A stretch of 61,273 nt of DNA. Source: a virus (Duplodnaviria; Caudoviricetes). The stretch covers positions 1 to 61,273 of the IMG/VR virus record IMGVR_UViG_3300032288_001098. The stretch is one strand, 5' to 3'. A program made the translations under genes and the position numbers. The notes below the pieces were generated by a model. That model was not told the origin of the DNA. It saw nothing but the letters and a program-made list of their open reading frames with translations, and searched no databases. Of this stretch, positions 1,438-59,375 are shown piece after piece. The stretch's first letter is position 1. Every line of letters starts with the position of its first letter.

Positions 1438-1714
1438 GTATCTTTTGGAGGCCGTCAGGCTCTCTCCCTGTCAGCACTGCGGGATTCAGGACGGCACTGT
1501 GGTGGCCGCTCATTCAAACCAACTGCGCGATGGGAAGGGCAGGAGCATCAAGGCCCACGACTTCAGGATCGCCGCCCTGTGCTTTAAATGCCACTACGAG
1601 CTGGATCAAGGCAGCAAGCTCACAAAGGATGAGCGTTTAAACATGTGGGAAGACGCCCACCGGGCCACGGTAGGCTGGCTCTTCCTTAACGACCTCATTT
1701 CAGTGAAGCGATAG
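1424..1714 (+). CDS. Zinc-binding HNH-like protein (DUF1364/DUF968-like)
   Basis: CQHC...AAHSN...GKG..IKAHD...ALCFKCH. Confidence 0.7.
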   Translation: MYRDKYLLEAVRLSPCQHCGIQDGTVVAAHSNQLRDGKGRSIKAHDFRIAALCFKCHYELDQGSKLTKDERLNMWEDAHRATVGWLFLNDLISVKR

Positions 1715-4700
1715 CCTTCTTGACTTCCTGAATGTTCTTGGTCAGGTTGTTCTCTGCCTGATTGATGGTCAGCAGGCCGTCCCGCTTTTCCTCTGCGCTC
1801 ATGGTGGAGGACTGGATGACAACCCTCATCTCCCGCAGTTCCTTCATGGTCTTCTCAAGGTCTCGGATGTAATCCTTGACCGCCAGCGGACCCAAGTTAT
1901 CCTGCACATACTGAGCAAACTTCTCAGGCTCCATCGTCCGCTCAAGCAGGTTCATCGTTCGCACGGTGGTGTCAACCGAATCCTTCATCTCGTAGTAGGC
2001 GGTGACTGTGCCCCGGGCGGCAGGATCAACGGCAAACCTCTTGATGACTGGCATCTGTTCAAACCGCTTGGCCGCTTTGGGGCTGTCGCCAAACTGATCC
2101 ATGATGTAGTCGATGGTGTCGATTGCGTACATACCCATCGTGCCGGTATAGCCCTTGATGATGTGGTCAACCTTCATGGGCGACAGGCCGAGATTCTCCC
2201 CAATCGCTTTGGCGATCTTCGATGTACCCGGGCCAACCTGATACTCAGCCGCAACATCCTGCATGCCCTGACCAACGATCTGCCGCCAAGTGAAGGGGTT
2301 GAAGTTAAACGCCGTCTCAAGGACTGGCTTGACGACCTGCGGGATTGGGTTAAACGCAAAGGTACTCATGAAGTTGCGCTTCATCGACTCCGTGAAGTCT
2401 TTACCTGTGTCATTGCCAAATGAGTAGGCCATGATCCGCTCGGGGATGGTCTTGAAAAGAACACCCACCTCGAAAGGAATCGGGATGCGGATGCCCAAGC
2501 TGGGGATGATCCAGTTGTTGTCCTTGGTCTCCTGCTCTTGAGATTTGTAATCATCCTCGTCATGGACCATCATCCAGTAGTATGCAGAGATGGCCATCAT
2601 GGTAGAGCCACGCAGCCAGAACTTGCGCTGGATCGCCGCCTTATCAGCCATGTTCATGTTGCCGGTGGATGCTCTGTAGAACAGGTCAAGACCTTGCATA
2701 CGGGCGTTGAGGAAGGGAACCCCTGCGGTCAGGATACGGACCAGTGGGGAGTTGCCCTTGCGGTTGAAGTTCATCACCTCCAAAGCCCTGAAGAGCGCCT
2801 CGGCCTCGTTGCCTGTGTCGTTTAAAACACGCTCATAGACCAAAGCACGCGTAGCTGCGTCGGACGCCTCGGTTCCGCGTTCCAAAGCTCCCCACAGTGA
2901 TTTAAACGGGCGAAGGACCAGCGGTGCTTTTTTCCCGGCTTTTTCTGACAGGTCTTCCTCAAGCTGCCGCCCAGAGCGTTCGATGTTCTGGCTGAACTCG
3001 TAGCCGCCAATCACCCCGGCATCCAACAAAGCCTCGTAGCCTTTGGATTTCTTGGCGAGGGCCTTGCCAAAATTGATGACCGTACCTGCGATAGGGGTCA
3101 TTTTTTGGCCCGAAGTCACCCATGCGGACAGCGAATCACGCATCAGGTTGGCCATCATGAAGCCGGGGTCCTTGGTCACCAAGTTGCGCAGGGCGTTGGC
3201 GGGCGCAGCGATGATCCCAAGACCGGGTATCTCGTTTAAATGCAAGCTGCTGATGGCGTCAATGAGCAGTGCATCGGGTGTGCGGTATGAAACACGCTTG
3301 CCGTTCTCCAGAACATGGAACACATCCGGCCCGTTAGCATCGTGATCAAGCCTCTCTGCGCCCATGCCGGGGGCCTTGACCTTGGTCACAACCCCGACCG
3401 CTCTCTGAGCCGCAGCGTTCTTCACCCCCGCCTGAATCATCGACTGGGTGTTACGCACCGCAGTCTCAAGGAAGTCGGCCAATGGAGCTGTGCCACCCTT
3501 GAGCTTCTTGGGTGGTTTAACGCCAGCAATCGATTGGAAGATGTTCGGGCCAACAGTGGTCTCTCCGTCCATCTGGCGGTAGAAGGGCACGTAATCGGCA
3601 TACCGCATAAACGCTTCTGCGTTCTGCTCGGAGATCACCCCCGTATCCCGGGCGTACTTGACCAGACCATTGTTGAACTCGATGAACTCTTTCTGGACCG
3701 TCACAAACTCTGGAAACTTGTCCTGAAGATACTTGGCGTACTGGACATCGGTGTTGTCGATGCCGGTCTCCTTGCCTTCAGCGTTTAAACGCACTCCGCG
3801 CTTAACCATCGCCCAGTACTGGTAGTACTGATAAATCTTCGGATCACCGTAACGGGCCAGAGGCTGGAGGATCGCAATCAAGCCCTTCTTGCTGCGGTCG
3901 ATGGTGGTCACGCCGTTCTTGTAAACGGGGATGCCACCATTGCGATCTCCAAATCCCATAGCCGATGCCGCAACCCCTGCGCCAAGATCAGACATGAGTG
4001 CTGCTGCCTCTGCGCTTTGATCTGCGAGAAGCTCTTTGCCGCCCATCTGCTCGACCAGCTTTCTGTCGTAGACACCCAACTGGTTGTACTGGTTGAGGAC
4101 ACGCTGACGGAAATAGGAGAAGTTCTTGGGACTGATGGCCTCAGTCATGCGCTCAAAGAAGCCTTCGGGCTCTCTGCGGAAGGTTGTCTCCCCGATCCGG
4201 GTCTCCATCGCTTTCGGGATGGCGGGAAGGCTGTATTTGACCTTGCTGCTCATCCGAGTGAACTTCTCCATCGCCTTGTCTTTGTTGGCGTAGGAGAGCG
4301 GCTCAACCTCTGCCGCCATCAAAACCGATGACACTGAGTCAGGGTATTGGGCGGTCAGCATTTTTACCGGAATGGACTTCGCATCTTCAGCCCGAAGGTG
4401 AATGTAGATTGGTACTTCGTTATAACCAGCCCCGTGGAGAGCCAGCATGCGATGACGGCCCTCGTGACCCGTAATTTTCCACTCACCATTTTTTTCTGAC
4501 ACGGACAAAAATGGAACTTGGTCGTAGTTCCTCATCCTCTCAGGATCAAGTGGCTCTTGCTCTTGAAGCAGTCTTTCAAAAGTTTCAGGCGATGCTGTGG
4601 CACGGACGAAATCCATCGGATCAACAAACGCAAGGTAACCCTTGGTCTTGTTCTCCGCATCGTTCTGGGTGTACATGGATTCATTCCACAGCTTCTCAAA

Positions 4701-7700
4701 ACGATTATCGGAATAGCGCACATTCTTCAGGCTGTAGCGGATGTCCTTGGTCTCAAGGCCGTAGTCACCGAGGTTGCCGGTTACTGACTTGAGTTGCTCG
4801 GGCTTGTAAACGGCGTAGTTCTTCGGCGAGGCCCTGTTCTCCCTCACGGTAAACGCATCAAAGCCGAGGGCGCGAATGGCCTGCTGTACCCGCTTGTCCT
4901 CGATGGCTTGCCACAATCCTTGAGAGATGCGACCCTTCATCCCGGCCAACCACTTCTCGGGGAAATCCTGCGGGATTTGGGTGTTACGGGCAACCCAGTC
5001 CATGACCAGATTGACATGGTCCGAGTTCTCAAAATCAAACGGTGTCTCTGCCCGGGCGTACAGGGGCATGATTGACATGCGGGTGGGAGACAGATCAAGC
5101 AGGGCGGCGTAAACCTGCGCTTCAATGTCGCCAAAGTCCCCATAGTCAGGAACCTTGCGATTGGCTTGCTTGATGAAGTCGGTGCCCTCCCTCTCGGAGA
5201 TGGAGCCCTTCTTGACCTCCTCATCCACAACACGCTGGAAAAAATCCAGCTTCTCGGCCTTGTTTAAAGCCTTGTAGATTTCACGACGCAGCCTGTCTTC
5301 TGCGATGCTGCCAAATGTTTCTGCCTCTTCTGGAGTGTCAGCGAGGAAGATGGCTTGAGACTGGCCTGCCGGGGTGAACTCAAAAAACTCCCGGGCGGTG
5401 GCGTGGTAGAAAACCTTGGCCTTGCCATCCTTGTCCAACCACCTGTTAGCACCATTGAATAGCCTGAACTCCCGTGTGGTTGGGACTTCCGTCTTTGCTA
5501 CAGCCTCCTTGACCGCCTTGACGGAGGGGAATGCTACGCCTTTGAGGCTGTAGCGGGTGGCAGACTTAGATGTTTTTACATCATGCTTACCGACAAGAAC
5601 GGCATAACCGTTGTGTTGAAGCGGATCGTTGAGCAGGTAGCCGTCGAAGCCAGCTTCCTTTACGCCGCGCTCCCAATTGTTGCGGCGCTCCTCTGCCGTC
5701 TCACCGTTGGCTCGTTTAACAATTCCCAGTGGGTCTTTGAGAACATCGTACAGATTGTTGAGCTTGATAACATGAGGTACACCGCCGACCCCAGACTCAG
5801 GAATGATGCCACGGCCCTTATCAACATAGAAGTATGCGCGACTGCGGATATCCGAATTTTTTGGCTCCATGAGCCTGTCGCGCTCCATGCCGCGCAAACC
5901 AGAGCCGTAGAAGGCGGTGGAAATAATTGGGCGTTGTTGCTTGCTGAAATGAACGCCGACTGCGCTTACTGAGTTTGCTCTTGGCGTCCCGTATTCGGCT
6001 TGCGCATCGCCGACTCGTATCTCGTTACCGCGCTCTCCGCCTCGTTGGCGAGCCGCTCCTCTGGCGTCGATCCAACGATCTCGGAGGGCGATTGCGGATT
6101 CCGCAATGGCCTCCAAACGCTTACGCCCTTGCCCCCGAACAGTGTCTCGTTCGGCTTGTAAGTCCTGTGTATCACGTTCGCCATATCTCGTTCCCTCAAG
6201 GTAATCTTCTCTCTTGCTGGCCTCAACCAAATCGCTGTGGAACCGCATCGGCTCGTACACCTCGATGTCGCCAACATAATCAAACTCATTGATAGCATCA
6301 ACGATTGCTTGATGATATTGCTTATCCGTCAAGGTGTCAACTCTGTCATCGTAGGCAGAGAAGTTGCCGAAGAACAGAGAGCCGTTACGCAGCGTGTCGC
6401 CGCCAGCCTGAGGAACTGAGCGGGCAATGTGATTGCGAAGCTCGTTTACATCGCTTTCCTTCATCCCATTGGGGATCACAACTTGAACAAAACCAGCTTG
6501 ACTGCCCGATGTTTTATTGTTCTCGTCGAAGGTGACCATTGCCTTCTGGTCAAGCACATAGCCAAGCACCCGGGCAAGCTCGTCAAGCTCTTGAATGGTT
6601 GCGTCTTCGGGGGCTTCAACGATTATGTTGGGGTTAAGCTCACCCTCATACTTGCCAGAAGAGAATTGGTAGCTGTAACCCCTCAAGCCAAGCTCGGAAA
6701 ACACTCCGAGCATGATTTTGCTGGCAACAGCCTTGGTTGCATCAATTCTTTCCTGCGGCGTCATCTCTCGCCACAACTCTGCGGAGATGTGGTCTGGATT
6801 CGGCGCTACTTCTGCGACGATACCTTTTTTGAGGGATAACTTGCTTGCATCGACCCGACCAGATTCATCAGGTACTGCGCCCTTTCCTCTGGACTCATCC
6901 CTGCGGTCAGGTTGTTCATCGAAGACCACAGAGGGTCCCTCTCGTCGATCACTCTCTGTTGACTGGGCAATGATTGCTTCTTCATATCCGATGTCATCTG
7001 CTTCCCTTCCCGTCAGTTTGGCATACAAGCGTTTCTCATAGTACCAAAGAGCGGCCTGAATGTCTGCAAGAGACAGGTCGATGCCTTCGGAACGCAGGTT
7101 TTTCTGTGCCTTACGAGCAACGTCATACATGAACTTGCGGTCGCTGGAGTTGAAGGGGTCCTCCTTCAACATCTCGTATTCGTTCTTGTAAATGGTATTT
7201 CCAAGTTTCTCAAGCCTATGCTCCAACATTAACTGCTCGAAAGCAGGTCCGGCCTTTCGCTTGGCTTTAGCAAGCCATTTGGGATAACCAGCTTTGTTTG
7301 GCTCCTTGGCTCCAGCAAGAAACTCCAAATCCGTCACATACCCATGTTGCTCGTACTTCTTTTTAAATGGAACGGTTGCAGCAATTACCTCTTCACGGGT
7401 TGCCGAGGGCATCTCCATCAGCTCACGGAATGTATTGATGGAATTTGGGGTAGCTTGAGGCACCAGCAAACCGCGCATCCGGTTGATACTGCGGGTCCAC
7501 CAAAGGTCCATCGTCAAATAACCCTCTGATCCCGAGAGGTTGGCGTAGAACGCACCAAGTTTTGGTCCAAAGTAAATTGCAGCGGCTGGGATTTTGGTGT
7601 TGGCAAGGTAGTCACTGCTGGGCTCTTCGCCCACACTGCGCAGATAAGCGTTCATCTGTGAAACAGTGATTTCCTTGGTGAGTTCCTCTTCAAAGCCCTT

Positions 7701-10700
7701 GCCGTGCTTGTCAAGTAACGACTGAATCTGGACAAGATTGTTAGTGAGCGCATCTGCACGGCGAGAACTAACCGGAACAAGCGGCTTGCCCTGACGCAAG
7801 TCGGAATACAGCCGGATAGCATTCTTGATGTTTGCGGTTACATCTTCACCGTTTGAGGTGACAGCAACAAGCGCAGAGAACACAGACCGGGCGTGTTTGT
7901 TTTCTTTCAGCTCATTGAATCGATTGCCAAGACGTTTAACTGCGTTGGGGTAGTTGTTGGAATACCAGCCAAGGCCAGTGCCGGTTTTGGCGCTGGCGCG
8001 TAGCTGGTAGCCAACTTCGTCAGCAACAGCCTTGGCAAGGTCTTCGACATCTTGTGCGGTCGGGTTGGACTTGTCTATGGCACCAAAATGATCCGTGGTG
8101 TATTGGTTCAACGCTTTACCAACATCACGAACATTATTTGCGCCGGTTGCGCCCTTGACTTTGTCTGTCTTCAAGCCAAGGGCAATTTGTGCGAAACCCG
8201 CCGTCTGCTCCATAAGGTTGCGGGTAGAACGATTCACCCCAGCGCCTGCAAGGCTGTATTTTTGTTTGGCATCAATAACTTCTTCAGCCTTCTCTTCGGC
8301 CTCACGCCCCCTGCGGCTGGATTCCTCATTCATTTTGACCATGAGGTCGTTAGCTTTCTGCTCATCGCCGCCAACAAAATCCATCACCGCTTGATTTAAA
8401 CGGCGGAATGTCATGGTCTGATTGCGTTTTGCAGCCCCGGGAGAAATCCCTTGTGGCCGTCCAACTCTTCCAGACGCCTCGTCATCTGCCTTGATGACCT
8501 TCTCATGCAAGTCCCAAATCTTCTGGGGGATGCCTTTGGGCGCAAGGCTAAGTTTCTCTTCTGCTTCGGCAGGCTTACGACCTCTCAACTCGCCACGCTC
8601 AACCCTTTGGAAGATGTCATCCGCAGATTCAAACCCTGCGCCGCGCAGAGCTTGGCCGAAGTTCAGGAAGAAGTTCTTGAGCCGTTTAAACAGAGCAGCG
8701 ATCATGCCCGGTGGCGGCGTGGCTCCTCTGTCATAAGCGCCGAATGCGTCAGCAATTGCCTCCTCGTTGAGGGTTTCCCTGACGTAGTTCTGGAGTTGCT
8801 GGCCGGACAGGCCCTTGGCCTCGCCCTCTTGGGTGAACATCTCGACATACGCATCATGGCGAGACTTACCCTCGGAGAAGGGCACGTTCTTGAGTTCCTG
8901 AACCCACTGCTTTTCTGCTCTTTCGTTTAAAGCCTTCCACTGCTGCGGGGTGAAGAAGCCCAAGTCCTTGAGCGCATGAAGGGACTCATGCCGCATGGTC
9001 TGAAGCGGGTTGGCCTCGTCATACGCCACCCGGATCAGCTTGTTCAGATATGCGCCGCCCGCATTGTTTTCGATGCTCTCGACAACCTTCAGGCCGACAT
9101 CCTGCAAGCCAAACTGCTTGAGCTTGGGGACAAGCTGTTGCTCCAAAGCAACAATACGCTCATCCCTCTGCTTCTTCATCTCCGCCTGTTTAAAGGGTTC
9201 ATCGCCGATGATGCCCCGCACCGACGCCTCCGCCTCTCCTGCGGTTGCGAAGGTTCCAAGTGGCTCGTTGGTGGGCGACAGCACGTTGTACTGCTCCCTC
9301 ACCGTTTCCTTCTGGCCAATCGGGGCGAAGGTCAGGGGGGCTCCGAGTTGTTGGACTTGCTCCGCCAACTCTCTTGCTTTGGTTTCTGCGGCCAGTTCCT
9401 GATCGGGCAGGGCGGTCTTTAGCTTGGTGTACTCGGGGTCAGCGGTCTTGCCGGTGGCCTCAAGGTAGTCAATCCTGTCGCGGGTCTTCTGTATCCCGTC
9501 ATTGAGCTTTTCCATCTGCTCAACAAGGGTCTCCCGCTCGGACTCACGAATTTCCTTGAAAGACTCGATCTTTTGCAGGGCCTGTTGCTCGGACGCAACA
9601 GTTGTGAGCGGGGTCTCCTGACCCTCCACAAAGATGCCGTAGGACTCAGGCCCGACCTCCCGGCCCAACTCCTCGCGCATGACCTTGTAGCCTTGCGGCA
9701 ACTCGATGGGCTTTTCGGGCTCAGGGGGACGAGCGGCCATTTCGGCAAGCGCCCGGGCCTTCTCGGCCTCAAACTCAGCCTGTTGTTTCTTGATCGCCTC
9801 CTGACGCAGAGCCTCCACATCAGGGCCGCGAAGAGCGGCAACTGGAGCAGAACCGAGAAGACCAAGCAAGCCTTCCTGCGTGGCTTGACCGGCAACACCC
9901 TCAAAGGTGGGGACATCACGCCCCTCTCTCTGGAGGGCGAGGTTTGCAGCCAAGCGTTCCTGACCGCCTTGGAAGGCTTCTGTGGGCACATCGGTGGCCG
10001 CTGCTGTGGCTATCCTGCCTGCCACAGATTGGCTGGCCTTTGCCGCCGCCCCGGGGGTCAGAAGCCGTTCTGCACCGAACCTGCCAGCGACATAACCTGC
10101 GCCTGAACCCAGAAGAATCTGGTCAATGTTGTTGCCTGCGTAGCTTTGGGCGGCTTCAGCCTTTGCCCGGGCCTCCTCCTCGCCAACGCCGTCCTTGCGC
10201 TCTGCCTCATACACCGCATCGTAAATAGCGCCTTTGACAGCGCCAGCACCCTGCGCAGTACCAATGACGGCAGGAGCCGCTTTGGCTACGTTGGTTGCCG
10301 CCGCAGTTGCCCTTGCACCAAGTCCAAGAACGCCAGCGGCTGGCCCCAAGAACATGGTCGGGATATACGGAGCAAAGGAACCCAATGCCTGTGCGGCAGA
10401 CTGAAGCGGGGCCTCGGCAATGTTTTGAAGTACGGCCTTGGCTTCTTCAAGGGCACTGCCAGATGCTTCTGCACGCTTTAAACGCTCCTGCTGGCGGGCA
10501 AGCTCGGCTTGGCGGGCGACAGACATCCCGGCCTGAGAAGCCCGGACACGCTCTTCCAATGCCCGAGAAGCCACATTCCCAGCCCCAAAGACATCAGTCA
10601 GGGCTTGGGTACTGCCATATGCGCTCTGCGCAAAGGAGGCGGCAAGATCGCCGAGGTTGAAGCCAGCAGACTCAGGAGCCCTCTGGCGCATCGCCATCTG

Positions 10701-10802: not shown

Positions 10803-10807
10803 TTACC

Positions 10808-48903: not shown

Positions 48904-48914
48904 GGAGTTTAAAC

Positions 48915-50522: not shown

Positions 50523-50535
50523 TGCCGCCTTTTTT
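50513..50535 (+). terminator. Rho-independent terminator
   Basis: GGCGGCA-TGA-TGCCGCC-TTTTTT. Confidence 0.75.
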
Positions 50536-50548
50536 AAGGAGAGACAAA

Positions 50549-51164: not shown

Positions 51165-51387
51165 AGAAACAGGCAAGTGGGTGATTCTGAGTTACTTCCC
51201 GAATTCACCAGTGGATGTTTATGGGTTGTTTGACTCGGAACGGGAAGCCCGTGACTACGCAGACAAGCATGGCTTCGCAATTGGGCAGGGGGCATACGAT
51301 GTCAAGTCGGTGCTCAATGCCCACTACCATGAAGACCCGAGCGACTACGTTGGCATGGGTTGGATTGGCGCAGACGGCAGACCATAA
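51157..51387 (+). CDS. Hypothetical protein
   Basis: YGLFDS..EA..YA motif; RBS. Confidence 0.6.
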   Translation: MNEETGKWVILSYFPNSPVDVYGLFDSEREARDYADKHGFAIGQGAYDVKSVLNAHYHEDPSDYVGMGWIGADGRP

Positions 51388-51409
51388 CAGTTTAAACAGG
51401 AGAACTGAA

Positions 51410-51562
51410 ATGACCTACAACCTGCGATCTGATGAGTCATACGAAGACGAAATGTACGACCTCTACCTTGAGCGTCAGGCCCGTCTGCGCTACGAGCGCA
51501 CCTTGGCCCGACACCCAGACCCGCAAGACCCAGACTACCCGGAGATCGATGATGAAGCATGA
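51410..51562 (+). CDS. Small acidic protein
   Basis: AGGAG RBS; HPDPQDPDYP. Confidence 0.55.
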   Translation: MTYNLRSDESYEDEMYDLYLERQARLRYERTLARHPDPQDPDYPEIDDEA

Positions 51563-51663
51563 CCCCTTCGACTACTGGTCTGCGCCCGGGAGGGGGTGGC
51601 GTATCGCCCTCTTGCTGGTGCTGGTTGCTATCTGTATGCTTGACCTGTTCTTCTGGAGGCCGC

Positions 51664-51885
51664 ATGGATAAGGAACAACTGGAGAAAATACTCGACACCC
51701 ACAACAAGGTCATGGACGTTGTCTCGGAATCGGGCCTTGATGGGTTCGACATAGTCGCGGTTCTGAGCAAGTGCCTGATCAACTACGCCGTGCATATCGA
51801 GGATCGTGATGAATTCAACATCCGCATGGCAATGACCTACGACTTCGTCAAGTCGCAGACCCCTCCTCTGGAGGAGATGCACTGA
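51664..51885 (+). CDS. Hypothetical protein
   Basis: GGAGG RBS. Confidence 0.55.
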   Translation: MDKEQLEKILDTHNKVMDVVSESGLDGFDIVAVLSKCLINYAVHIEDRDEFNIRMAMTYDFVKSQTPPLEEMH

Positions 51886-52130
51886 TGCGCAAGATCAAGG
51901 TCATCAACCAAGGTGGCGACTACTTCAGGGAGCAACTGGAGAAGTACGCCCACCTGCTGGAACCAGTCCCCGACCATTCACACATTAAACGCCGAGAAAG
52001 GTATATCAACTATCTGCCGCGACAGAAATGTTGGGCTGTCTTCACCATGCCATCAAACATCAATGATTCACCGATGATGCGCAGTCGATACGACAACGTG
52101 ATCAGCGCAGTACACAGCGCACTTAATTAG
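51885..52130 (+). CDS. Hypothetical protein
   Basis: TGATG coupling; GGAG RBS. Confidence 0.55.
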   Translation: MRKIKVINQGGDYFREQLEKYAHLLEPVPDHSHIKRRERYINYLPRQKCWAVFTMPSNINDSPMMRSRYDNVISAVHSALN

Positions 52131-52159
52131 TTTAAACGGGGGCCTTGTGCCCCCGCTTT

Positions 52160-53845
52160 TCAAAACGCATCCAAGTTTTCCGAGTAAGTACCCGCCACCT
52201 TGTTGTACAGCAATGTGGTTTCACCCTGCGTCCCCACCCATCTATAGCGGCACTTCCAGACCGCAATCTCAACGACAGGCCCATCACCTCGATGAACGGT
52301 GATGCCGCAGTCTGTCTTCGCCCACCATGACATTGACCCCGCAATGGACATCCCATCAGGCCGGGGCTGATCATTCCCGCTCCTCTGCATTTTCGAGGGG
52401 TGAGCGATGAACCACGTATGCACATCATGCGCCTTGCAGAACTTCTGCACCCGGGTCAGCATCTGACTGATTGCATCCGTTTCCGTCATGTCCCTCCGAT
52501 CCAGTTGAATGTAGTTGTACGGGTCAATCACCAGACCCCGCACCCCCATCCTTGTCACCGCCGCCCTCGCCCTGTCGAGGATCGAGTCCAACGTGCTTGG
52601 CTCTTCGCCGTTGGTGTCGATAAACAGGAAATGATCCTGAACGAATTTAAACGCATCCTCCCTCTCGCTGTCTCCCATCCGGTCGCGCCCCTCAAAAAAC
52701 CTTTTGTGGGTGTATATCTCCATCAGACGGGTGATGTGAATTTCAGGTTGATTCTCAAAGGAGCAGATCGCAAACTTCCAGTGCATCGACCGCGCAAGAT
52801 TGACCATGATCTGGTCGAGGAAGTTGCTCTTACCGCTCGATGGATAGCCGGTGATGACCGTAAGTTGGGAGGGGGCGATCGTGTAGATTTCATCGACCGA
52901 TGGGTAGCCGGTGCTAAACCCTCTCCCCGTGCCTTTGGTGTAAAGGTCTTTGACCTTCTCGGCAAATGTGTTTGCATCCGAGAGCCCGTTGACCGGATAT
53001 GGTTCTGCGCCGCTGATGATCCCCTCAATGTCCACCTTGGGATCGTCAGACGCCAGAAGGACATCGTTTAAATCCTTCTTGCCAAACTTGGCCAAGCGGC
53101 ACTTGTCTTTTCCGATCCTCCGCGCCAACTCCTCCGCAAGCGCCTGACCGGGGATGTCCTGATCTGTGGCCAGAACCACATACGGGGCAGCATCGATGAT
53201 CTCCCGGGCGTTCCAGACATACGCAAAACGCTTGTCTTCAGAGGGGAGAACCTTGCCATCTGCGACCTTGACAGGAGCGCCGCCGGGTACGCTGACGACA
53301 TTGTTTAAACCGATCTCCACCGCAGACAGGGCATCGAACTCGCCCTCCACGATGATCAGAGGCTCACCCTTCTTTACATGTTCAAGGCCATAGAAATCAT
53401 GTGCGCCGCCTGCGTCTTGAGTGAAGTCCTTGTCCTCGATGGACCGGTACTTCGCGGCAATCAAATTTCCATCACGGTAGTACGGGAAGCCGATGGCCTC
53501 TGTCTTGCGCCCGAGTCGTGAGAAGAACTTCTGGGCTGAGAATAGCCGCATCTTGTCTGCGGTCTGAGGGGAGATACCCCGGGAAATCAGATAGGCGTAA
53601 TGCTCATCTTTGAGGCTGTTGCTCACGATGGCGGGGGCGGGAACTGCTTGCAATCGCTTCTCCTTGGGCGGCTGGACAGCCCCCTCTGCGTAGCAGTGAT
53701 GGCAGTGATAGACCACCGCACCATCTGCCTTGCGGCTGAGGGTCATGTCCTTGATTTTTTTCTTTTTTCTCTCCGGGGTGCAGAACGGGCAGATTACCCG
53801 TGTCGTGTCACCAAATCTTGTTTCTTCTACGAGGGCCTCGATCAT
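52160..53845 (-). CDS. Bifunctional primase-helicase (T7 gp4/Twinkle-like)
   Basis: Zn finger CPFC..CHHC, TOPRIM EGEFD..DQD, Walker A GYPSSGKS, IDPYN, AHP.K. Confidence 0.93.
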   Translation of the reverse strand: MIEALVEETRFGDTTRVICPFCTPERKKKKIKDMTLSRKADGAVVYHCHHCYAEGAVQPPKEKRLQAVPAPAIVSNSLKDEHYAYLISRGISPQTADKMRLFSAQKFFSRLGRKTEAIGFPYYRDGNLIAAKYRSIEDKDFTQDAGGAHDFYGLEHVKKGEPLIIVEGEFDALSAVEIGLNNVVSVPGGAPVKVADGKVLPSEDKRFAYVWNAREIIDAAPYVVLATDQDIPGQALAEELARRIGKDKCRLAKFGKKDLNDVLLASDDPKVDIEGIISGAEPYPVNGLSDANTFAEKVKDLYTKGTGRGFSTGYPSVDEIYTIAPSQLTVITGYPSSGKSNFLDQIMVNLARSMHWKFAICSFENQPEIHITRLMEIYTHKRFFEGRDRMGDSEREDAFKFVQDHFLFIDTNGEEPSTLDSILDRARAAVTRMGVRGLVIDPYNYIQLDRRDMTETDAISQMLTRVQKFCKAHDVHTWFIAHPSKMQRSGNDQPRPDGMSIAGSMSWWAKTDCGITVHRGDGPVVEIAVWKCRYRWVGTQGETTLLYNKVAGTYSENLDAF

Positions 53846-54090
53846 TTCATGCTTCCGTCTGCCTTACGTTTAAAACTGCGGTTGGACGAAGAGGGACGGG
53901 CGACCAGATTGCTTCGGGTTGTTGTGCCGCCTTTGCTCAGGGGCTTCTTGTGATCAACATCTTTCCCATCTCCCTTGTGGACGATGCCTTCTCTCTCCAA
54001 CATCCTTCGGGCCTTGTTGCGTTGCGCCCGTTTCTTTTTGACTGCGGGTGTTCCGTCATAGTTGCGATACTCTGCGGCGTAGTCTCTCAT
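53842..54090 (-). CDS. HNH endonuclease
   Basis: DVDHKKPLSKGG..NL..NR. Confidence 0.85.
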   Translation of the reverse strand: MRDYAAEYRNYDGTPAVKKKRAQRNKARRMLEREGIVHKGDGKDVDHKKPLSKGGTTTRSNLVARPSSSNRSFKRKADGSMK

Positions 54091-54212
54091 GTTTAAACTC
54101 CTGAAGGAGGGGGCCGGTTTGCTACTGGTGAGAGGGGCGACAGTGACATGTATGAAGCCTCTGTTCCCAGCAAGGTTCCCGTGCAAGGGTTAACGAGCCA
54201 GCCCCCGAAACC

Positions 54213-54491
54213 TCATTTTGCCGCAGATCCAGTGTCCATGTTGTCCACAAAACGCTGGATGATGCCACCAAGAACATCCATGCGGCTGATGTTTTTCAAC
54301 TCTGCGACAGATGTGATGAAACAATAATGTTGATGGCTAACGGTGATGGCGTGTGCCTCCGCTTTTTTACTCTGAACTGCCGCCTTTTGAGGCTTTGCCT
54401 TCAAACTCTTGGGCCTGCCCACCTTCCGCTTGGAGATGGTGATCTCGGGGATTGACTCTACTACTGACTTCTCAAGCATATTGCTCTCCAT
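54213..54491 (-). CDS. Hypothetical DNA-binding-like protein
   Basis: GRPK motif followed by RHH-like C-terminus. Confidence 0.5.
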   Translation of the reverse strand: MESNMLEKSVVESIPEITISKRKVGRPKSLKAKPQKAAVQSKKAEAHAITVSHQHYCFITSVAELKNISRMDVLGGIIQRFVDNMDTGSAAK

Positions 54492-54515
54492 TGGTTAAGA
54501 TCCCTGTGGCCGTTG

Positions 54516-54716
54516 TTACGGCTCTTGGTCTGAATCACTTTGTGAGCCGTAGAGTTCCTCTGGACTCCGCTTGGCTCTCACATGTAGCCACTGATGATAA
54601 TCTGCGACTGTTGGCATGCAGGTGGCCACCAATGTCCTGAGCCAGACTTCCCAGATCAGGTCTTGACGATCACACCATTCCTCAAACTCCCTCATCATCT
54701 TGTCTTCATCTTCCAT
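54516..54716 (-). CDS. Hypothetical protein
   Basis: AAGGAG RBS. Confidence 0.5.
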   Translation of the reverse strand: MEDEDKMMREFEEWCDRQDLIWEVWLRTLVATCMPTVADYHQWLHVRAKRSPEELYGSQSDSDQEP

Positions 54717-54737
54717 CTGGCGCTCCTTTAAGATTTT

Positions 54738-55050
54738 TCACCCAAAGGCCCCCCTTCCCCAGAGGAGACAATGGGTGGCTTTCACCGCCTTGCGGCATCT
54801 GCATGTTTCTTTCGAAACCCCTCGGCTTGCAGATTCGGCCAGCCGTCCGGACTGTAGGGTAGTTGCCCTTGCTTGCGCTACCGGATAACCCTTTTCTTCC
54901 ACGCAGTCAGGTTGAACTCTTGCTGTCGTGCGGAGTACGGTTATCGTAGGCAACAAAAAAGCCGCTTGCAACTGCGATCCGGTAGCAACCTTGCCTGATG
55001 GCTCTCCCACTGAAAGCATCGGGTAAGGCGGATCGCATGCACAAGCGGCC
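54738..55050 (-). ncRNA. Candidate structured leader RNA of the replication operon
   Basis: Long GCCGCTTG/CAAGCGGC stem with U-run, then a multi-branch region with four GNRA-capped hairpins. Confidence 0.5.
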
Positions 55051-55082
55051 TACATTTGTTGTTTGCTACGACAACACTGCGG

Positions 55083-55110
55083 ATTCTGCCAGAACTTTTT
55101 TATCTGTCAA
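55083..55110 (-). promoter_or_regulatory. Sigma70 promoter for the replication operon
   Basis: TTGACA-16 nt-CAGAAT with TG extension. Confidence 0.6.
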
Positions 55111-55235
55111 TACACCTGTTACAAATTTTTTCTGAGCGGATGCGGATTGACTTCAGCGGCAACCTTGGCATTGGTGTTTAAACAATCAGGCGGAGGCTCA
55201 TGTGGTGAGCCTGCTGCGTGCGGGCCGAAAACCGT

Positions 55236-55730
55236 TTACACTACACCTGCATGCTTCTCCGGTGTGCCTGCTTCACAGCAGTTGCTTCTCTCCTTTCCCC
55301 GCCCCGCGCGGGGTTTCTTTTTGGGAGCGACATCGTCCATCTTCTCGATGATGATCTCTGCCCGGGGGCGCTCAGGGTCAAGACCCCAGTACAGGTGGCG
55401 CTCCTTAACCTGACGGTCGTTCTCATAGACCAGCCCCTGCATCAGGTCGAGGATCAGGGAGTCATCCAGATCAGGCCTTCTGGAGGCGTAGTAAATCCAC
55501 ATGGTCACCTTCAGGTCGCCCGACATGAGAGGGGCGATCTCTTTGCACTGTTGTTTAAATACAACAGCATAGCCTCGTGCTTTGTCAGACTTGATAAGTC
55601 TTGGCATGTTGCCGAAGCGAACCATCTTCCTACTGTTGGCCTTGCTTGCGGGCTCACCAAAAATAATCATTGATAGTGATTGCAATTCGTTTGGAGTATC
55701 GCTATCATTCGTAACCATAGACGCTTTCAA
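55236..55730 (-). CDS. rusA: RusA-like Holliday junction resolvase (start uncertain)
   Basis: GEPASKAN..RPDLD..ILD..NDRQV. Confidence 0.8.
   Translation of the reverse strand: MKASMVTNDSDTPNELQSLSMIIFGEPASKANSRKMVRFGNMPRLIKSDKARGYAVVFKQQCKEIAPLMSGDLKVTMWIYYASRRPDLDDSLILDLMQGLVYENDRQVKERHLYWGLDPERPRAEIIIEKMDDVAPKKKPRAGRGKERSNCCEAGTPEKHAGVV
55680..55708 (+). promoter_or_regulatory. Sigma70 promoter for the recombination operon
   Basis: TTGCAA-17 nt-TATCAT, bracketed by an inverted repeat. Confidence 0.55.
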
Positions 55731-55738
55731 GGATGTTT

Positions 55739-56611
55739 ATGAAGATCACCAACAAGTTTGATGTGCCACTGCCATTGGTAACTCTGGCCTCCAAGGAATA
55801 CTACACCAAGGGGGCCGCGCAGTACAGCGTGACTGAGTTGATCAGCCCTCCAAAGATCAGGAGGTTGCGCGAACGTCACAACGAAGACATTGAGCAGGAT
55901 GTCGCTGACATGCTCTGGCAACTGCTGGGTTCAGCCCTGCATGTGGTTATGGAGAGAGGGGAGACCGCTGGGTGGAAGAAGGAGGAGCGCCTCTTTGCAA
56001 AGATCAACGGCGTCACCCTGTCTGGTCAGATCGACCTCCAGCAGGAGACCGACAAGGGCATCGTGATCTGGGACTACAAGTTTACCTCCGCATGGGCGGT
56101 GATGAACGACAAGGTTGAGTGGGAACAGCAGTTGAACATCTACAAGTGGCTGGTGGAGCAGACCGGCAAGAAGGTTGTGGGCCTGAAGATTTGCTCCTTC
56201 ATCCGCGACTTCAGCCGCCACGAGACCAAGGAGAACTACCCCAAGGCTCCCATCCATGTCATGGACTTTCCGATGTGGGACAGCCAGCAGACGCAGGCCT
56301 ATATCGAGGAGCGGCTGGAGTTGCACCGCGATGCGAAGGTTGATTCAGATTTGGGGGAAGACCTGCGGGACTGCACCCCAGAGGAAAGGTGGATGTCGGA
56401 CACGACATACGCCGTCAGGAGGGAAGGCAGGAAGACTGCCATCCGTGTGTTTAAAACTATCGAAGAGGCCAATGAACTGGCCGAGAAGGAGAAAGGCTAT
56501 GTCGAAACAAGACTCGGAGAACCCAGACGTTGTGTCGGTGACTATTGCGGGGTCAGCCGTTGGTGCAAACAGCATCAACTCTGGAAGGCAGGATTCCATG
56601 AGTCAGATTGA
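55739..56611 (+). CDS. PD-(D/E)XK exonuclease (Cas4/RecB-like)
   Basis: SVTELI..G.ALH..GQIDL..DYK..QLNIY; C-terminal Cys cluster. Confidence 0.85.
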   Translation: MKITNKFDVPLPLVTLASKEYYTKGAAQYSVTELISPPKIRRLRERHNEDIEQDVADMLWQLLGSALHVVMERGETAGWKKEERLFAKINGVTLSGQIDLQQETDKGIVIWDYKFTSAWAVMNDKVEWEQQLNIYKWLVEQTGKKVVGLKICSFIRDFSRHETKENYPKAPIHVMDFPMWDSQQTQAYIEERLELHRDAKVDSDLGEDLRDCTPEERWMSDTTYAVRREGRKTAIRVFKTIEEANELAEKEKGYVETRLGEPRRCVGDYCGVSRWCKQHQLWKAGFHESD

Positions 56612-57278
56612 TCTTCTCAAGGTCAATGTCAACGAACATACCGAGAACAAGCAGGGGCTGACCTACCTGTCTTGGGCGTGGGCTTGGGCTGAGGCTCTGA
56701 AGGCCGACCCCCATGCAAACTTCCAGATTCAGATGTTTGATGGCAAACCGTATCTGGAGATCAACGACACCGCGATGGTGTTCGTGACTGTGTGTATGTT
56801 CGGCAAGCCGGTGACCTGCTTCCTGCCTGTAATGAACGGGGGTAACAAGCCCATCACATTCTCCGGGCGGGAGGTTCAGACCCGCAACGGCAGGATCATC
56901 GAGAAGATTGACTCCTTCAACGTCAACACCGCCATCATGCGTTGTCTGACTAAAGGTCTGGCCCTGCATGGTCTGGGCCTGTACATCTACGCTGGTGAGG
57001 ATTTGCCCGAGGGCGATGCAGAGCCTGCCCCCACGGTGGCAGAGAAAAAGGCTCCACCAGCTATCAGTGAGCAGGACGATGCCAACGCCCGTCTGTTCGC
57101 CGAGGGTATCGAGCAGTACATGTTCGTGGCCACAACCGAGAAGGGCCTGCGTTCGTACTGGAAGGAGAACGAGGTAGCCCTCAACAAACTCAAGGAAACC
57201 CATCCCGCCCTCTACGAGGGCATTCTCGCCGCATTCAAGAAGACTGCGGCACAACTCAAGGAGAAGGCAAATGCCTAA
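56598..57278 (+). CDS. Single-strand annealing protein (Sak3/DUF1071-like)
   Basis: LTYLSWAWAW..NTAIMRCLTK..GLGLYIYAGEDLP. Confidence 0.85.
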   Translation: MSQIDLLKVNVNEHTENKQGLTYLSWAWAWAEALKADPHANFQIQMFDGKPYLEINDTAMVFVTVCMFGKPVTCFLPVMNGGNKPITFSGREVQTRNGRIIEKIDSFNVNTAIMRCLTKGLALHGLGLYIYAGEDLPEGDAEPAPTVAEKKAPPAISEQDDANARLFAEGIEQYMFVATTEKGLRSYWKENEVALNKLKETHPALYEGILAAFKKTAAQLKEKANA

Positions 57279-57579
57279 CTACCCACAAAAAACTTTCAAG
57301 CCCCACAAGGACTCGGGAAGCCTCAAGGCCTCCACGATCAAGAAGACAGAGAAATCTGCCGACTACTGGGGTGACATTGCCATTGACCTGAACGACAAGA
57401 CCGCACTGAAGGTCGTAGACGGGCTGACCATTGTCAGACTGTCTGGCTGGAAGCGCAAAGGCAATGACGGCAAGATGTACCTGTCTTTGGCCGTGAACCG
57501 CTATGTGCCCGAGGAAGGCGGAGCAACGGGCCGTCCGCAGAAGGCCGAGGACTTCGGCGATGATGACATCCCCTTCTGA
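57271..57579 (+). CDS. ssDNA-binding-like protein
   Basis: DYWG..LSGWK..YLSL and acidic DDDIPF tail. Confidence 0.7.
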   Translation: MPNYPQKTFKPHKDSGSLKASTIKKTEKSADYWGDIAIDLNDKTALKVVDGLTIVRLSGWKRKGNDGKMYLSLAVNRYVPEEGGATGRPQKAEDFGDDDIPF

Positions 57580-57581
57580 TC

Positions 57582-57974
57582 ATGGCCCTACAGTTTGAAT
57601 GCCGCAAGGTCGCCCTCAAGCAGGATCGAACAGGCTTCATCCTGACGGTGGCCATACACCCTGACGAAATCCCGGAGGAACTCTTGCGGGACTTTGTCGG
57701 CTCCAGATACGGGTGTGCGCTGGTTCGCATCCAAGATGATGAATCTGCCACCCAATACAACAACCGTGTCCAAAAGGCAGGGATGTTGTGCCGAGACCAC
57801 AAGTTTTGGGAATTCCTTGAATGCTCATCGGAGGAGGAGGCCGCAACGGAACTCTGCGCCCGATGTGGCATCAATTCAAGAACCGAACTTCATGGTAATG
57901 AGGAGGCCAAGGCCCACTTCGATGGGCTTTTGAAAGACTACGAAAACTGGCGGTATGACAACCTGCCATTCTGA
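57582..57974 (+). CDS. Conserved phage protein
   Basis: QFE..KVALKQ..G..L..HPD; CGINSRTEL. Confidence 0.65.
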   Translation: MALQFECRKVALKQDRTGFILTVAIHPDEIPEELLRDFVGSRYGCALVRIQDDESATQYNNRVQKAGMLCRDHKFWEFLECSSEEEAATELCARCGINSRTELHGNEEAKAHFDGLLKDYENWRYDNLPF

Positions 57975-57983
57975 GGAACAACA

Positions 57984-58301
57984 ATGACAGCATCGACGTT
58001 TAAACCATTCATGGCTTACCTGTCACAGAAGGACTTGATCAAACTCAGGCGCTTCTCAAAACAGTCCAAGACCCCGATGGCGCAGATCATTCGGGAGGCG
58101 GTCGCCGCAAGGATGGCCTCTGGTGACCCATTCACCGCAGGATTCAACTCGGGGGTTGCCAAGTGCATCGAAACCGTGCAAAACATGAGTGTGGCGCAGA
58201 TGAGGTTCCCCTCCGGCAAATCGTTCGCAGAGGTGGTCAAGGACGAACTTGAAAACCAACTCATTGCGGAGGCAGAGCATGAAACTGAGGGGGCAACGTA
58301 A
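57984..58301 (+). CDS. Ribbon-helix-helix DNA-binding protein
   Basis: YLS..KL...S......MAQIIREAV. Confidence 0.65.
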   Translation: MTASTFKPFMAYLSQKDLIKLRRFSKQSKTPMAQIIREAVAARMASGDPFTAGFNSGVAKCIETVQNMSVAQMRFPSGKSFAEVVKDELENQLIAEAEHETEGAT

Positions 58302-58554
58302 CCAGTGCCAAGGGTGCAAGGAATACTTCAACAGCAACTATGCGTTCGATAAACACAGAACCGGAAAGCACGGCGTTAACCGCCGTTGTCGGAGTCCTGA
58401 AGAGATGCTGGAACTCGGCATGCTCAAGAATCAGGCAGGGTTCTGGATATCGAGCGCAGGAATTTACCGAGGAGAAGACGATGCAAGTGACGAAACCGAA
58501 GATGGTGCAGAAGGCGGAGAAACTCAAAGCGCCGCTGCTCGACCCCACGTTTAA
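58279..58554 (+). CDS. Zinc-binding protein (FDxHR type)
   Basis: CQGC..F.S..AFDKHR.G..RRC. Confidence 0.7.
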   Translation: MKLRGQRNQCQGCKEYFNSNYAFDKHRTGKHGVNRRCRSPEEMLELGMLKNQAGFWISSAGIYRGEDDASDETEDGAEGGETQSAAARPHV

Positions 58555-58651
58555 ATACATCAACGCAGCCGCCACGGACGTTCAGTCAACGTGGCGCAAG
58601 TTCGGGTGGACCCCGCCAAGTGCGGTCAAGGAACGCCATGAAGCAAGGTGA
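58481..58651 (+). CDS. Hypothetical protein
   Basis: FKY..AAATDVQSTWRKFGW.PPS; GAGGAG RBS. Confidence 0.6.
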   Translation: MQVTKPKMVQKAEKLKAPLLDPTFKYINAAATDVQSTWRKFGWTPPSAVKERHEAR

Positions 58652-58776: not shown

Positions 58777-59049
58777 ATGAAAGAGAGAAGCGAATTGATC
58801 AAGTCAAACCAACCCGAGGCCAGAAGAATACTCAGGGATAACCCTGATGGCCTGACTATCAATGAGATGGTGCGCATGATGCCTCAGATACCCAATGAGA
58901 ATGCGCTCAGACGCTGTCTGTCGAGAATGCCAGATACCTACATCGACAGGTGGGTTGGGCCGGTTCGTGGGCAGTACGAGGCCGTGTGGTGCGTGGTCAT
59001 CCCGCCGCCAGACTGCCCAAAACCAACGAGACCGCTGCGGAGGCGATGA
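58777..59049 (+). CDS. HTH-like hypothetical protein (start uncertain)
   Basis: DGLT..MPDTYIDRW..AVWCVV.PP.DCP.P. Confidence 0.6.
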   Translation: MKERSELIKSNQPEARRILRDNPDGLTINEMVRMMPQIPNENALRRCLSRMPDTYIDRWVGPVRGQYEAVWCVVIPPPDCPKPTRPLRRR

Positions 59050-59375
59050 TGTTTAAACATATTTTGTTGTGCGCTCTATTTGCTAGTCCTGCCTACGCAA
59101 GCCAGTTCTGGGACGGCAACAAGTTATTCAATGCCATGAATGGCAATCAGTTTGAAAAAATGCATGCGCTTGGCTATGTGATGGGTGTAATTGACAATGA
59201 TGCAAACAAATCATTCTGCGCACCGAGCACGGCCACTCTGGGCCAGATGCACGACATCGTGAAGGTGCAGTTAGAAGGGCGACCAGAACTTCGCCATTTC
59301 AATGCTGATGTAATTGTGCGTGTATCGCTGGCCCGTGTGTGGCCGTGTGACTCCAAAAAGGGCAGTTCTTTGTAA
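59046..59375 (+). CDS. Rap1a-like secreted immunity protein
   Basis: Signal peptide; GN.L..GYVMGV.D..C.P..Q..V..P..RH..A..V..L..WPC. Confidence 0.75.
   Translation: MMFKHILLCALFASPAYASQFWDGNKLFNAMNGNQFEKMHALGYVMGVIDNDANKSFCAPSTATLGQMHDIVKVQLEGRPELRHFNADVIVRVSLARVWPCDSKKGSSL

Follow-up and report, generated by a model that had tools for sequence, protein, structure and literature searches.

Short words iterated throughout a genome are rare, and the cases that are understood, namely Chi, the DNA uptake sequences and the stoperators, have each revealed a machine that reads DNA. Chi and the uptake sequences are asymmetric, strand-biased words that abound in the host chromosome, and the L5 gp71 repressor binds the stoperators of Cluster A mycobacteriophages, a 13-bp site present about 30 times. 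HIP1 (GCGATCGC), a palindrome iterated in cyanobacterial chromosomes, has to our knowledge remained without an explanation for three decades. Here we analyze the 61,273-bp virus record IMGVR_UViG_3300032288_001098 (98% complete, G+C 54.8%; the entire record is referred to as the window), in which the palindrome GTTTAAAC recurs from end to end, together with c1, a phage SprT-like zinc-ribbon protein that is the candidate reader of this word. GTTTAAAC looks like a genome-wide iterated recognition site whose nearest known counterparts are HIP1 and the Cluster A stoperators, and the iteration of GTTTAAAC or of its soil-phage variant GTTTACAC in phages is new to the literature searched.

GTTTAAAC has several features in common with HIP1, as the available portions of two HIP1 studies describe it (PMC5861425, PMC4390886). 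Each is a palindrome of 8 nt with a many-fold excess and a density of about one per kb, and its coding copies occupy the permissible frames whatever the codon preference. Each is better conserved than control palindromes, with one-off variants that mostly deviate at the outer bases, and neither has a proven function. Unlike HIP1, GTTTAAAC is AT-cored, occurs in phage genomes across many host phyla and is not common to other phages of the same host strain. It is also tied to the gene of a phage protein and not to orphan methylases, and no cognate methyltransferase was found in the genomes searched for one.

Like the stoperators, GTTTAAAC is putatively the site of a phage protein, iterated genome-wide with one copy at the protein's own promoter, and the likeness extends to the soil variant GTTTACAC, which is asymmetric and biased in orientation. 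However, the site in the window is palindromic, shorter and mostly in coding sequence, its candidate reader is a SprT-like zinc-ribbon protein and not a helix-turn-helix repressor, and the window has no visible integrase or immunity function.

SprT, Spartan and Wss1 are DNA-dependent metalloproteases, and the ArdC-type proteins are anti-restriction proteins. c1 resembles them in matching the Pfam SprT-like family, in keeping the HExxH motif and in its predicted fold, which is nearest to proabylysin, selecase and Wss1. It stands apart in that no sequence-specific DNA site is linked to the family in the literature searched, its fold matches are weak (best Foldseek E 0.04) and a large subgroup lacks the catalytic motif. 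As with Chi and the uptake sequences, the word may be dense because a protein machine reads it; unlike them, GTTTAAAC is palindromic and shows no host enrichment in the genomes sampled.

A palindrome iterated across phage genomes

The initial annotation of this DNA had listed 26 exact copies of GTTTAAAC, and all 26 are present (Table 1), against a mean of 0.59 and a maximum of 3 in 100 dinucleotide-preserving shuffles. GTTTAAAC is the top 8-mer of the genome, with 2.58 copies expected under an order-3 Markov model. The one-mismatch variants mentioned there are real as well: the core TTTAAA occurs 66 times, a density of ~1.08 per kb, while the reversed control AAATTT occurs 5 times. The base 5' of the core is G in 44 of the 66 cores and the base 3' is C in 42. 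Under a maximal-order Markov model 28 octamers are expected, since that model starts from an already enriched hexamer core whose two flanks are independent. Thus, the hexamer-preserving null, which had been named as a possible refutation, does "explain" the octamer, but only since the core is the enriched unit. In 1.0 Mb of pooled related DNA there are 1042 cores, and the full octamer occurs 554 times. Here the second flanking position favors Y/R and nothing further out is conserved, and the site is therefore an 8-10-bp palindrome, YGTTTAAACR.

The copies are not explained by the proteins that they help to encode, as had been proposed from their different frames. According to rough calls of open reading frames (ORFs), one of them made on the wrong strand, 56 of the 66 cores lie within ORFs, 27 of them read as TTT AAA (Phe-Lys) and 29 as xxT TTA AAx (Leu-Asn/Lys), and 10 are intergenic. 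Both stop-free frames are thus used near-equally, in genes of either strand; the third frame would give a TAA stop. The codon-shuffle check leaves the enrichment in place: 1000 synonymous-codon shuffles of the 55 ORFs of at least 100 amino acids (aa) gave a mean of 1.95 GTTTAAAC (maximum 7) against 21 observed, and a mean of 10.25 TTTAAA (maximum 19) against 48 observed. This null is conservative because it retains codon counts that the motif itself has inflated. The use of TTA codons noted earlier is also borne out, with 25 of the 61 TTA codons lying within the motif, and 23 of the 46 Phe-Lys pairs are spelled TTTAAA.

Three structural or translational roles were considered and rejected. Copies read as xxT TTA AAx (29 cores) spell T TTA AAC in the zero frame when a C flanks the core, which is the canonical heptamer for -1 frameshifting, but there are too many copies in too many genes for frameshifting to be their purpose. 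A stop-codon role is too weak an explanation, with 29 of the 66 cores ending an open frame of at least 60 codons against ~19-20 expected (129 of 799 for all TAA). Hairpins or cruciforms were dismissed since the flanks have no complementarity beyond the octamer in the window, in its clade or in the WhiB-encoding phages described below. Some copies in the cultured Pseudanabaena phage Pan1, unlike those of other lineages, center longer inverted repeats (29576-29599, 1830-1853 and 38641-38666 of its sequence), and one is a perfect 24-bp palindrome inside a gene.

Along the window, 25 cores fall in 42900-61273 and 41 in 1-42899. Almost no sites occur in tail-fibre-like genes with atypical third-position G+C (13146-15917 and 21339-26729), a distribution that would fit slow accumulation of sites after the acquisition of such genes.

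To follow the sites through related genomes, we compared three relatives, G001, G002 and G003, which share 65-77% nucleotide identity with the window in alignable parts. TTTAAA is kept at 27 of 71 aligned positions, compared with 37 of 249 for other hexamer palindromes (2.6x; Fisher p = 7e-5), and the conservation suggested as a check is therefore observed. Window cores that are not conserved are mostly replaced by synonymous spellings, and the relatives hold sites absent from the window. No hexamer is more enriched than TTTAAA in the window or in G002, and in G001 and G003 it shares the top ranks with the overlapping GTTTAA/TTAAAC.

The initial annotation had set the motif against the usual avoidance of palindromes by phages, and the same genome displays both. 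GGCGCC, GCCGGC, CGGCCG, CTGCAG and CCWGG-containing words are absent from the window, where 50-78 are expected (both strands counted). The purged palindromes vary by relative, with G003 lacking CAGCTG and G001 lacking CCATGG, and are the footprint of restriction pressure that differs by lineage. Such complete purging indicates that these phages are exposed to restriction and that TTTAAA is a deliberate exception. A sub-lineage comprising G002 (L095+L096), L008 and L011 has no GTTTAAAC among its 40, 13 and 14 cores, respectively. It retains GTTTAAAT, ATTTAAAC and ATTTAAAT where the window has orthologous GTTTAAAC, which looks like avoidance of an octamer-specific (PmeI-type) restriction enzyme with retention of the core.

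The enrichment extends well beyond the window. Across 80 loci fetched through a large terminase (TerL) 79-86% identical to that of the window (846 kb), 481 GTTTAAAC were counted against 13 of the control CAAATTTG, and 887 TTTAAA against 155 AAATTT. The closest named phages are distant: TerL is 55-59% identical to those of Pelagibacter phage HTVC027P and the metagenome-assembled DSL-LC04 and 023Pt_psg01, and Planktothrix phage Pag-Yong1 and near-identical records have a primase-helicase 33% identical to that of the window and the same overall architecture. Such distant kin are not enriched, with TTTAAA/AAATTT counts of 19/18 in DSL-LC04 and 96/74 in 023Pt_psg01, and with no TTTAAA in the 50 kb counted of Pag-Yong1.

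Seventy-nine new loci came from a scan of viral contigs for pairs of motif copies separated by 200-230 nt, and 54 of them are enriched; 22 of these 54 contain no homologue of any window ORF in the compared set, which excluded c1. The highest densities are reached in a second family (43 copies in 34 kb of G408, 42 in 20 kb of G411, 37 in 17 kb of G412 and 37 in 12 kb of L109), which encodes WhiB, a sigma-like protein, a deoxynucleoside monophosphate (dNMP) kinase, an amidoligase and a glutamine amidotransferase. The TerL of this family is 49% identical to those of Streptomyces podophages, and we therefore take its members to be actinophages; no WhiB was found when searched for in the window. 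These WhiB-encoding phages carry 2-4 copies per kb, with 103 and 115 copies in the two frames, 117 outside ORF calls and strong Y/R flanks. In a third lineage, G410 (57% G+C), 37 copies were counted over 30 kb. Among cultured phages, GTTTAAAC occurs 16 times in Pan1 and 17 times in Dinoroseobacter phage R5C. A library or assembly artefact is excluded, since the sites leave reading frames open and are found again in hundreds of contigs assembled independently and in cultured phages.

Other metagenome loci, including L228, L237, L239, L283 and L285, contain tandem arrays with GTTTAAAC every 35-37 nt (or 53, 62, 82 or 92 nt), some with CRISPR-like spacing; these arrays are unrelated to the dispersed phage motif.

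The motif is not a signature of the host in the genomes and phages sampled. All 16 TTTAAA of Pan1 are GTTTAAAC, and AAATTT is absent. According to the accessible part of the Pan1 paper, Pan2, Pan3 and Pan4 were isolated on Pan1's strain (PMC9837993). Their TTTAAA/AAATTT counts are 2/0, 1/1 and 0/2, respectively, and Pam1, from another Pseudanabaena isolation series, has 4/8. The more AT-rich Pan5 has a mild excess (28/12). Thus, four of the five other Pseudanabaena phages tested lack the motif, three of them from Pan1's own strain.

On the bacterial side, enrichment in candidate host genomes had been suggested as a check and was not observed. Four metagenome-assembled genomes (MAGs) with TerL-like contigs are not enriched, and the presence of such contigs in four MAGs of unrelated phyla looks like binning noise. 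Among 401 genomes from the class of one such MAG, including four flagged as unpublished (G046, G148, G303 and G315), none comes near phage density, the maximum being 152 copies in 1.9 Mb; the window's true host lies outside this sample. A three-copy scan of metagenome contigs returned only tandem arrays and related phage-like contigs among the matches listed. As far as tested, the motif is not host-imposed, and the likeness to HIP1 fails where HIP1 was invoked as a chromosomal, host-type signature. Since Pan2-Pan4 share Pan1's host strain without the motif, and the hosts of carriers belong to several phyla, a single host factor is unlikely.

Together, our results demonstrate that the motif is a selected, phage-intrinsic DNA word, independent of coding and of the host as sampled. 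The idea of a selected DNA mark thus stands on enrichment, coding independence and conservation; among the roles that the initial annotation had listed for it, that of a modification target is the least supported.

c1, a SprT-like zinc-ribbon protein, as candidate reader

A protein of ~190 aa, c1, stood out when motif-rich contigs were compared all against all. Its profile matches the window at 46778-47461 (+) with E = 2e-50, and the true start of window c1 is probably the ATG at 46883. Every motif-rich lineage is matched by this profile: c1 is encoded in at least 40 loci of the window's clade, in an intermediate lineage (L106, L116, L176 and L234) and in the WhiB phages, as well as in the L138/L139/L162/L230/L250 group, L275/L278, L233, L262, L295, L112 and L174/L178. 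Its profile has no match at E <= 10 in the motif-poor Pag-Yong1, DSL-LC04 and 023Pt_psg01 (39 of 60 kb covered). Among all ORFs of the cultured Arthrobacter phage Tweety19, only c1 is common to the window's clade, the second family, the L138 group and Pan1. In six-frame searches, none of the remaining window ORFs proved as widely distributed, and no gene besides c1 is common to the five motif-rich lineages (phmmer E <= 1e-3).

Eighteen of 26 aligned c1 members match Pfam SprT-like (PF10263; best E 1.4e-9), and window c1 scores 26.2 bits (cut-off 25.6; E 7.8e-6). The HExxH motif is present in window c1 and missing from the main WhiB-phage subgroup, which makes up five of the 26 rows aligned, and the C-terminus is a CxxC...CPxC zinc ribbon. 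An AlphaFold2 (AF2) model of c1 has a mean predicted local distance difference test (pLDDT) score of 86.7. The best Foldseek match is proabylysin 4jiu (E 0.04, prob 0.94), followed by selecase and Wss1 5xbv, which are all minimal zincins and all weak matches (E > 0.001); a search of the c1 profile against the sequences of solved structures matched only proabylysin, at E 0.99.

Modeling of two copies of residues 36-224 yielded a symmetric homodimer with a score of 0.73, compared with 0.00 for the best control. Three runs share at least 98% of contacts, and the partner pLDDT is at least 88. Among proteins solved as pairs, 20 of 30 attain this score, compared with 1 of 23 among those solved as single chains. 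The model supports a symmetric c1 dimer and says nothing of DNA binding.

The c1 family is very large: 4447 representatives reach E <= 0.001, and the 120 best of 699 matches from a word-indexed search sit on contigs of at most ~71 kb. Homologues occur in 164-165 cultured phages, mostly annotated as "SprT-like protease"; that of Bordetella phage CN1 is annotated as "antirestriction protein".

The link between c1 and the motif can be approached from the protein side. In 77 loci (758 kb) fetched through L138 c1 alone, GTTTAAAC is the top 8-mer palindrome in 74, with 507 copies against 19 of the control. Nine GC-rich contigs (L380, L387, L397, L409-L413 and L417) contain 3-4 copies each, three of which fall within the c1 gene or at its end. 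Their offsets are +47, +287 and +558 in all nine but L397, where they are +290, +356 and +561, and the last copy supplies the stop codon (...GTT TAA AC). The fourth copy of L412 lies 1.6 kb downstream, and L420 keeps only the +287 copy. In the window, GTTTAAAT is found at 46810-46817, 67 nt upstream of the ATG at 46883, and the c1 stop codon TAA (47462-47464) lies within CTTTAAAC (47459-47466). In several contigs the 10 kb upstream of c1 are free of copies and the 2-3 kb downstream hold many, so the enrichment can be regional, centered on the early-gene block that contains c1.

Window c1 lies directly upstream of the MoxR and VWA genes (47236-50522, +). The gene pair after c1 is MoxR/VWA in the window's clade and Amidoligase_2/class-II glutamine amidotransferase in the WhiB actinophages (L337 12242-14260).

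We then examined 12 cultured c1 carriers, of which six have a strongly iterated word, three a modest one and three none. The strong carriers Pan1 and R5C iterate GTTTAAAC, with the counts given above. GTTTACAC is the iterated word in Arthrobacter phage Tweety19 (27 copies), VroomVroom (18), Zeta1847 (22) and Streptomyces phage Bogota (39), and controls occur 0-1 times in the six strong carriers. TTTAAA is absent from the three GTTTACAC soil phages checked. GTTTACAC has the same Y/R flanks as GTTTAAAC with one central base changed (A to C), and the c1 proteins of Tweety19, VroomVroom and Zeta1847 form one supported clade (97/99; Bogota is not in the tree). In orientation, GTTTACAC is 50 plus and 17 minus in three soil phages and 17:22 in Bogota.

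A copy of the word lies 17-85 nt before the c1 start in Tweety19 (two copies), VroomVroom, Bogota, Pan1, Alexa, Mano, ep3 and the window, and it directly follows a -10-like hexamer in Tweety19 and ep3 (TATAAT in ep3). Within 31800-37900 of Tweety19 there are six near-identical promoter-like TTGCGT-N17-TTAGACT units, each followed immediately by GTTTACAC; these units sit upstream of c1 and of small downstream genes.

Neither an iteration of GTTTAAAC or GTTTACAC in phages nor a DNA word tied to phage SprT-like proteins was found in the full texts searched, supplements excluded. The available portion of the Pan1 paper names neither word (PMC9837993), and that of the Cluster AZ preprint names neither and refers only to "repeat sequences (data not shown)" near the gene (bioRxiv 10.1101/2025.05.26.655371).

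We regard c1 as the likeliest reader of the motif, a reading to which we assign a probability of about 0.45 and in which both binding and its effect are inferred. c1 is the preferred candidate because it is the only one that gene content allows, because its gene both contains the word and has it alongside even where the rest of the genome is without it, and because it combines a zinc ribbon with a predicted symmetric dimer and a word that changes with the c1 clade.

Several observations weigh against this assignment. The motif-rich lineages were partly found through the motif, which biases their co-occurrence counts, although the c1-fetched loci and the cultured carriers are free of this bias. 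Away from the c1 gene region, the 18-20 kb of GC-rich contigs such as L412 and L417 are devoid of copies. GTTTAAAC is only modestly represented in Acinetobacter phage Alexa (8 copies), Achromobacter phage Mano (4) and E. coli phage ep3 (4), and the c1 carriers Bordetella CN1, Microbacterium Dismas and Franklin22 have no iterated motif. A prediction set in advance for the last eight cultured carriers held in full in two, in part in three and failed in three. The c1 tree, with a backbone lacking resolution, fails to part motif-rich from motif-less carriers. GTTTACAC is not palindromic and is a poor fit to a symmetric dimer, and the loss of HExxH in the main WhiB-phage group implies that the function shared by c1 proteins is not proteolysis. 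Finally, the c1 status of Pan2-Pan5 and Pam1 comes from an organism tally and not from a direct search. Since three of the 12 cultured carriers have no iterated motif, the link between motif and c1 is strong but short of proof.

We then propose a tentative model in which YGTTTAAACR would be a short double-stranded DNA recognition site, held at about one per kb by selection on the phage that acts neither through phage proteins nor through the host chromosome. c1 (46790-47464) would read it as a symmetric homodimer on the palindrome. The copy near the c1 promoter or in its 5' leader would allow autoregulation, and the many genic and intergenic copies, denser in the early/replication half, would load c1 along the whole genome. 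One possible outcome is stoperator-like control of transcription. Another is a DNA-scaffolded protease or a shield against host DNA-bound defense proteins, a role that has been proposed for ArdC-type and SprT-type proteins. A third is that occupied sites may mark module borders.

A broader version of this model is doubtful but worth stating. The phage SprT-like zinc-ribbon family would be sequence-specific, and each carrier would seed its own genome, coding regions included, with tens of cognate 8-10-bp sites as a portable form of self-marking. The cognate site would be GTTTAAAC for aquatic phages, whose hosts span several phyla, and GTTTACAC for the actinophages of soil. Such marking would place a DNA-dependent protease or shield on viral DNA and shape codon choice genome-wide.

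Alternatives to c1 as the reader

The alternative that survives best, although unlikely, is that another factor reads the sites, either a host nucleoid- or RNA-polymerase-associated protein or a small unrecognized phage protein, and that c1 merely co-travels in an early-gene cassette. The sheer size of the c1 family and the motif-less quarter of the cultured carriers (3 of 12) are compatible with a passenger, and the copies behind the six promoter-like units of Tweety19 and behind TATAAT in ep3 would suit a promoter-proximal element. However, most copies are intragenic and occur on both strands, and c1 is the sole gene that the five lineages share at the phmmer threshold given above. A host protein, moreover, would have to be common to Actinobacteria, a cyanobacterium, and Alpha- and Gammaproteobacteria, while leaving the other phages of Pan1's strain without the motif.

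A role of the motif mainly as a recombination or module-junction signal, serving cassette exchange between diverged co-infecting phages with the aid of the exonuclease, Sak and RusA, is distinctly unlikely. Of the 1814 internal homology breakpoints in 78 c1-fetched contigs, 14.7% are no more than 15 nt away from a TTTAAA, compared with 4.8% for random positions (maximum 6.2% in 200 draws), and 66 of 1295 right-hand breakpoints fall 1-3 nt past the motif. This enrichment at the cores indicates that sites often mark module borders, and the window does encode a PD-(D/E)XK exonuclease, Sak and RusA. Yet the test is confounded, since sites and mosaic junctions both favor gene ends and alignments extend through any conserved 8-mer. 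Most window copies lie deep inside conserved genes, and a cleavage hotspot should be expected to vanish by gene conversion rather than build up.

It is very improbable that the motif has a HIP1-like origin, in which a TTTAAA-specific methyltransferase and a methyl-directed repair nuclease of host or phage create and keep the sites, after Elhai's model. The window's ~1.08 TTTAAA per kb is near the roughly one per 1000 nt of that model, as given in the available part of its description (PMC4390886), and deviations cluster at the first and last base of the octamer, as in HIP1. The initial annotation had recognized no cognate methyltransferase, and we agree: none is present among the Pfam-scanned window ORFs, although one may be supplied by the host, and a six-frame search of five motif-rich phage genomes (G000, G001, G003, G408 and G409) gave no match to PF01555 or PF02086. 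Neither the other phages of Pan1's host strain nor the sampled bacteria are enriched. One-mismatch variants are only mildly depleted, against a null that is itself inflated by the motif, and their depletion gives no clear sign of drive.

Chance, codon usage, amino-acid motifs or an assembly artefact are next to impossible, since the one point in their favor, the agreement of 26 octamers with the 28 of the maximal-order Markov model, takes the enriched hexamer as given, and the excess survives dinucleotide shuffles, synonymous shuffles and reversed-word controls and is found in cultured phages too.

Gene content of the window and significance of the site

Coordinates of the sites and of the principal genes are collected in Table 1. 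The window further encodes an adaptor, a lysozyme, glycine-rich tail proteins, and the MoxR ATPase and VWA proteins. Pfam scans of its ORFs and a tRNA search found no DNA polymerase, integrase, methyltransferase or tRNA.

Table 1. Iterated sites and principal genes of the window, with G001-G003 denoting the three relatives compared
Feature	Position	Strand	Remark
GTTTAAAC	1635..1642	.	directly 5' of ATG
GTTTAAAC	3783..3790	.	inside the gene of the 3035-aa polyvalent protein
GTTTAAAC	8684..8691	.	
GTTTAAAC	11330..11337	.	
GTTTAAAC	12934..12941	.	
GTTTAAAC	19237..19244	.	
GTTTAAAC	30154..30161	.	kept in G001
GTTTAAAC	31717..31724	.	
GTTTAAAC	32023..32030	.	
GTTTAAAC	36545..36552	.	G002 has GTTTAAAT
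GTTTAAAC	37583..37590	.	minus-strand gene, between Shine-Dalgarno-like GAGGAG and ATG
GTTTAAAC	39177..39184	.	portal gene; kept in G001, G002 has GTTTAAAT
GTTTAAAC	41588..41595	.	large terminase gene; kept in G001
GTTTAAAC	43036..43043	.	kept in G003
GTTTAAAC	43422..43429	.	small terminase gene; kept in G001
GTTTAAAC	44024..44031	.	
GTTTAAAC	48237..48244	.	MoxR ATPase gene; kept in G001 and G003, G002 has ATTTAAAC
GTTTAAAC	48907..48914	.	start of VWA gene, between GAGGAG and ATG
GTTTAAAC	49985..49992	.	
GTTTAAAC	51390..51397	.	
GTTTAAAC	52130..52137	.	intergenic
GTTTAAAC	53303..53310	.	primase-helicase gene
GTTTAAAC	54091..54098	.	minus-strand gene, between AGGAG and ATG
GTTTAAAC	55176..55183	.	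intergenic
GTTTAAAC	57998..58005	.	
GTTTAAAC	59051..59058	.	
40 TTTAAA cores with other flanks	992..58555	.	12 GTTTAAAT, 8 ATTTAAAC, 6 CTTTAAAC, 1 ATTTAAAT, others
c1, SprT-like metalloprotease (HELCH) with C-terminal zinc ribbon	46790..47464	+	probable start at ATG 46883
Polyvalent protein, 3035 aa, LPD38 and ART-PolyVal domains	1695-10802	-	
Portal	38197-40668	-	
Large terminase (TerL)	41106-42671	-	
Small terminase	43300-43962	-	
Toprim-DnaB primase-helicase	52160-53845	-	

The domains assigned to the polyvalent protein, among them the ADP-ribosyltransferase domain ART-PolyVal, cover only ~10% of its length, and the protein probably enters the cell along with the DNA. A virion structural protein (15975-17366, -) is 90% identical over 406 aa to its counterpart in DSL-LC04, while the remaining proteins reach at most ~60%, which looks like a recent swap of a tail/receptor-side module. 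A Rap1a-like type VI secretion immunity protein is encoded at 58950-59375 (+) and has a DSL-LC04 homologue with 40% identity over 104 aa; together with the P22-type lysozyme, it hints at a Gram-negative host. A PDDEXK_14 phage endonuclease (997-1437, +; E 2e-30) is found only in the window and G002 among the compared relatives, and it was ruled out on that account as a common reader of the motif.

The phages described here provide a phage-sized, genetically tractable counterpart of HIP1, with cultured representatives among Arthrobacter, Microbacterium and Streptomyces phages as well as R5C and Pan1, a single candidate protein and a natural switch of specificity (A to C at the center of the word). 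The motif could also mark this phage group in metagenomes. If c1 is not the reader, another reader common to phages of very different hosts is still to be found. If c1 does read the site, a gene annotated as "SprT-like protease" in at least 164 cultured phages would gain a function, and the tolerance of one palindrome in genomes purged of others would be explained.

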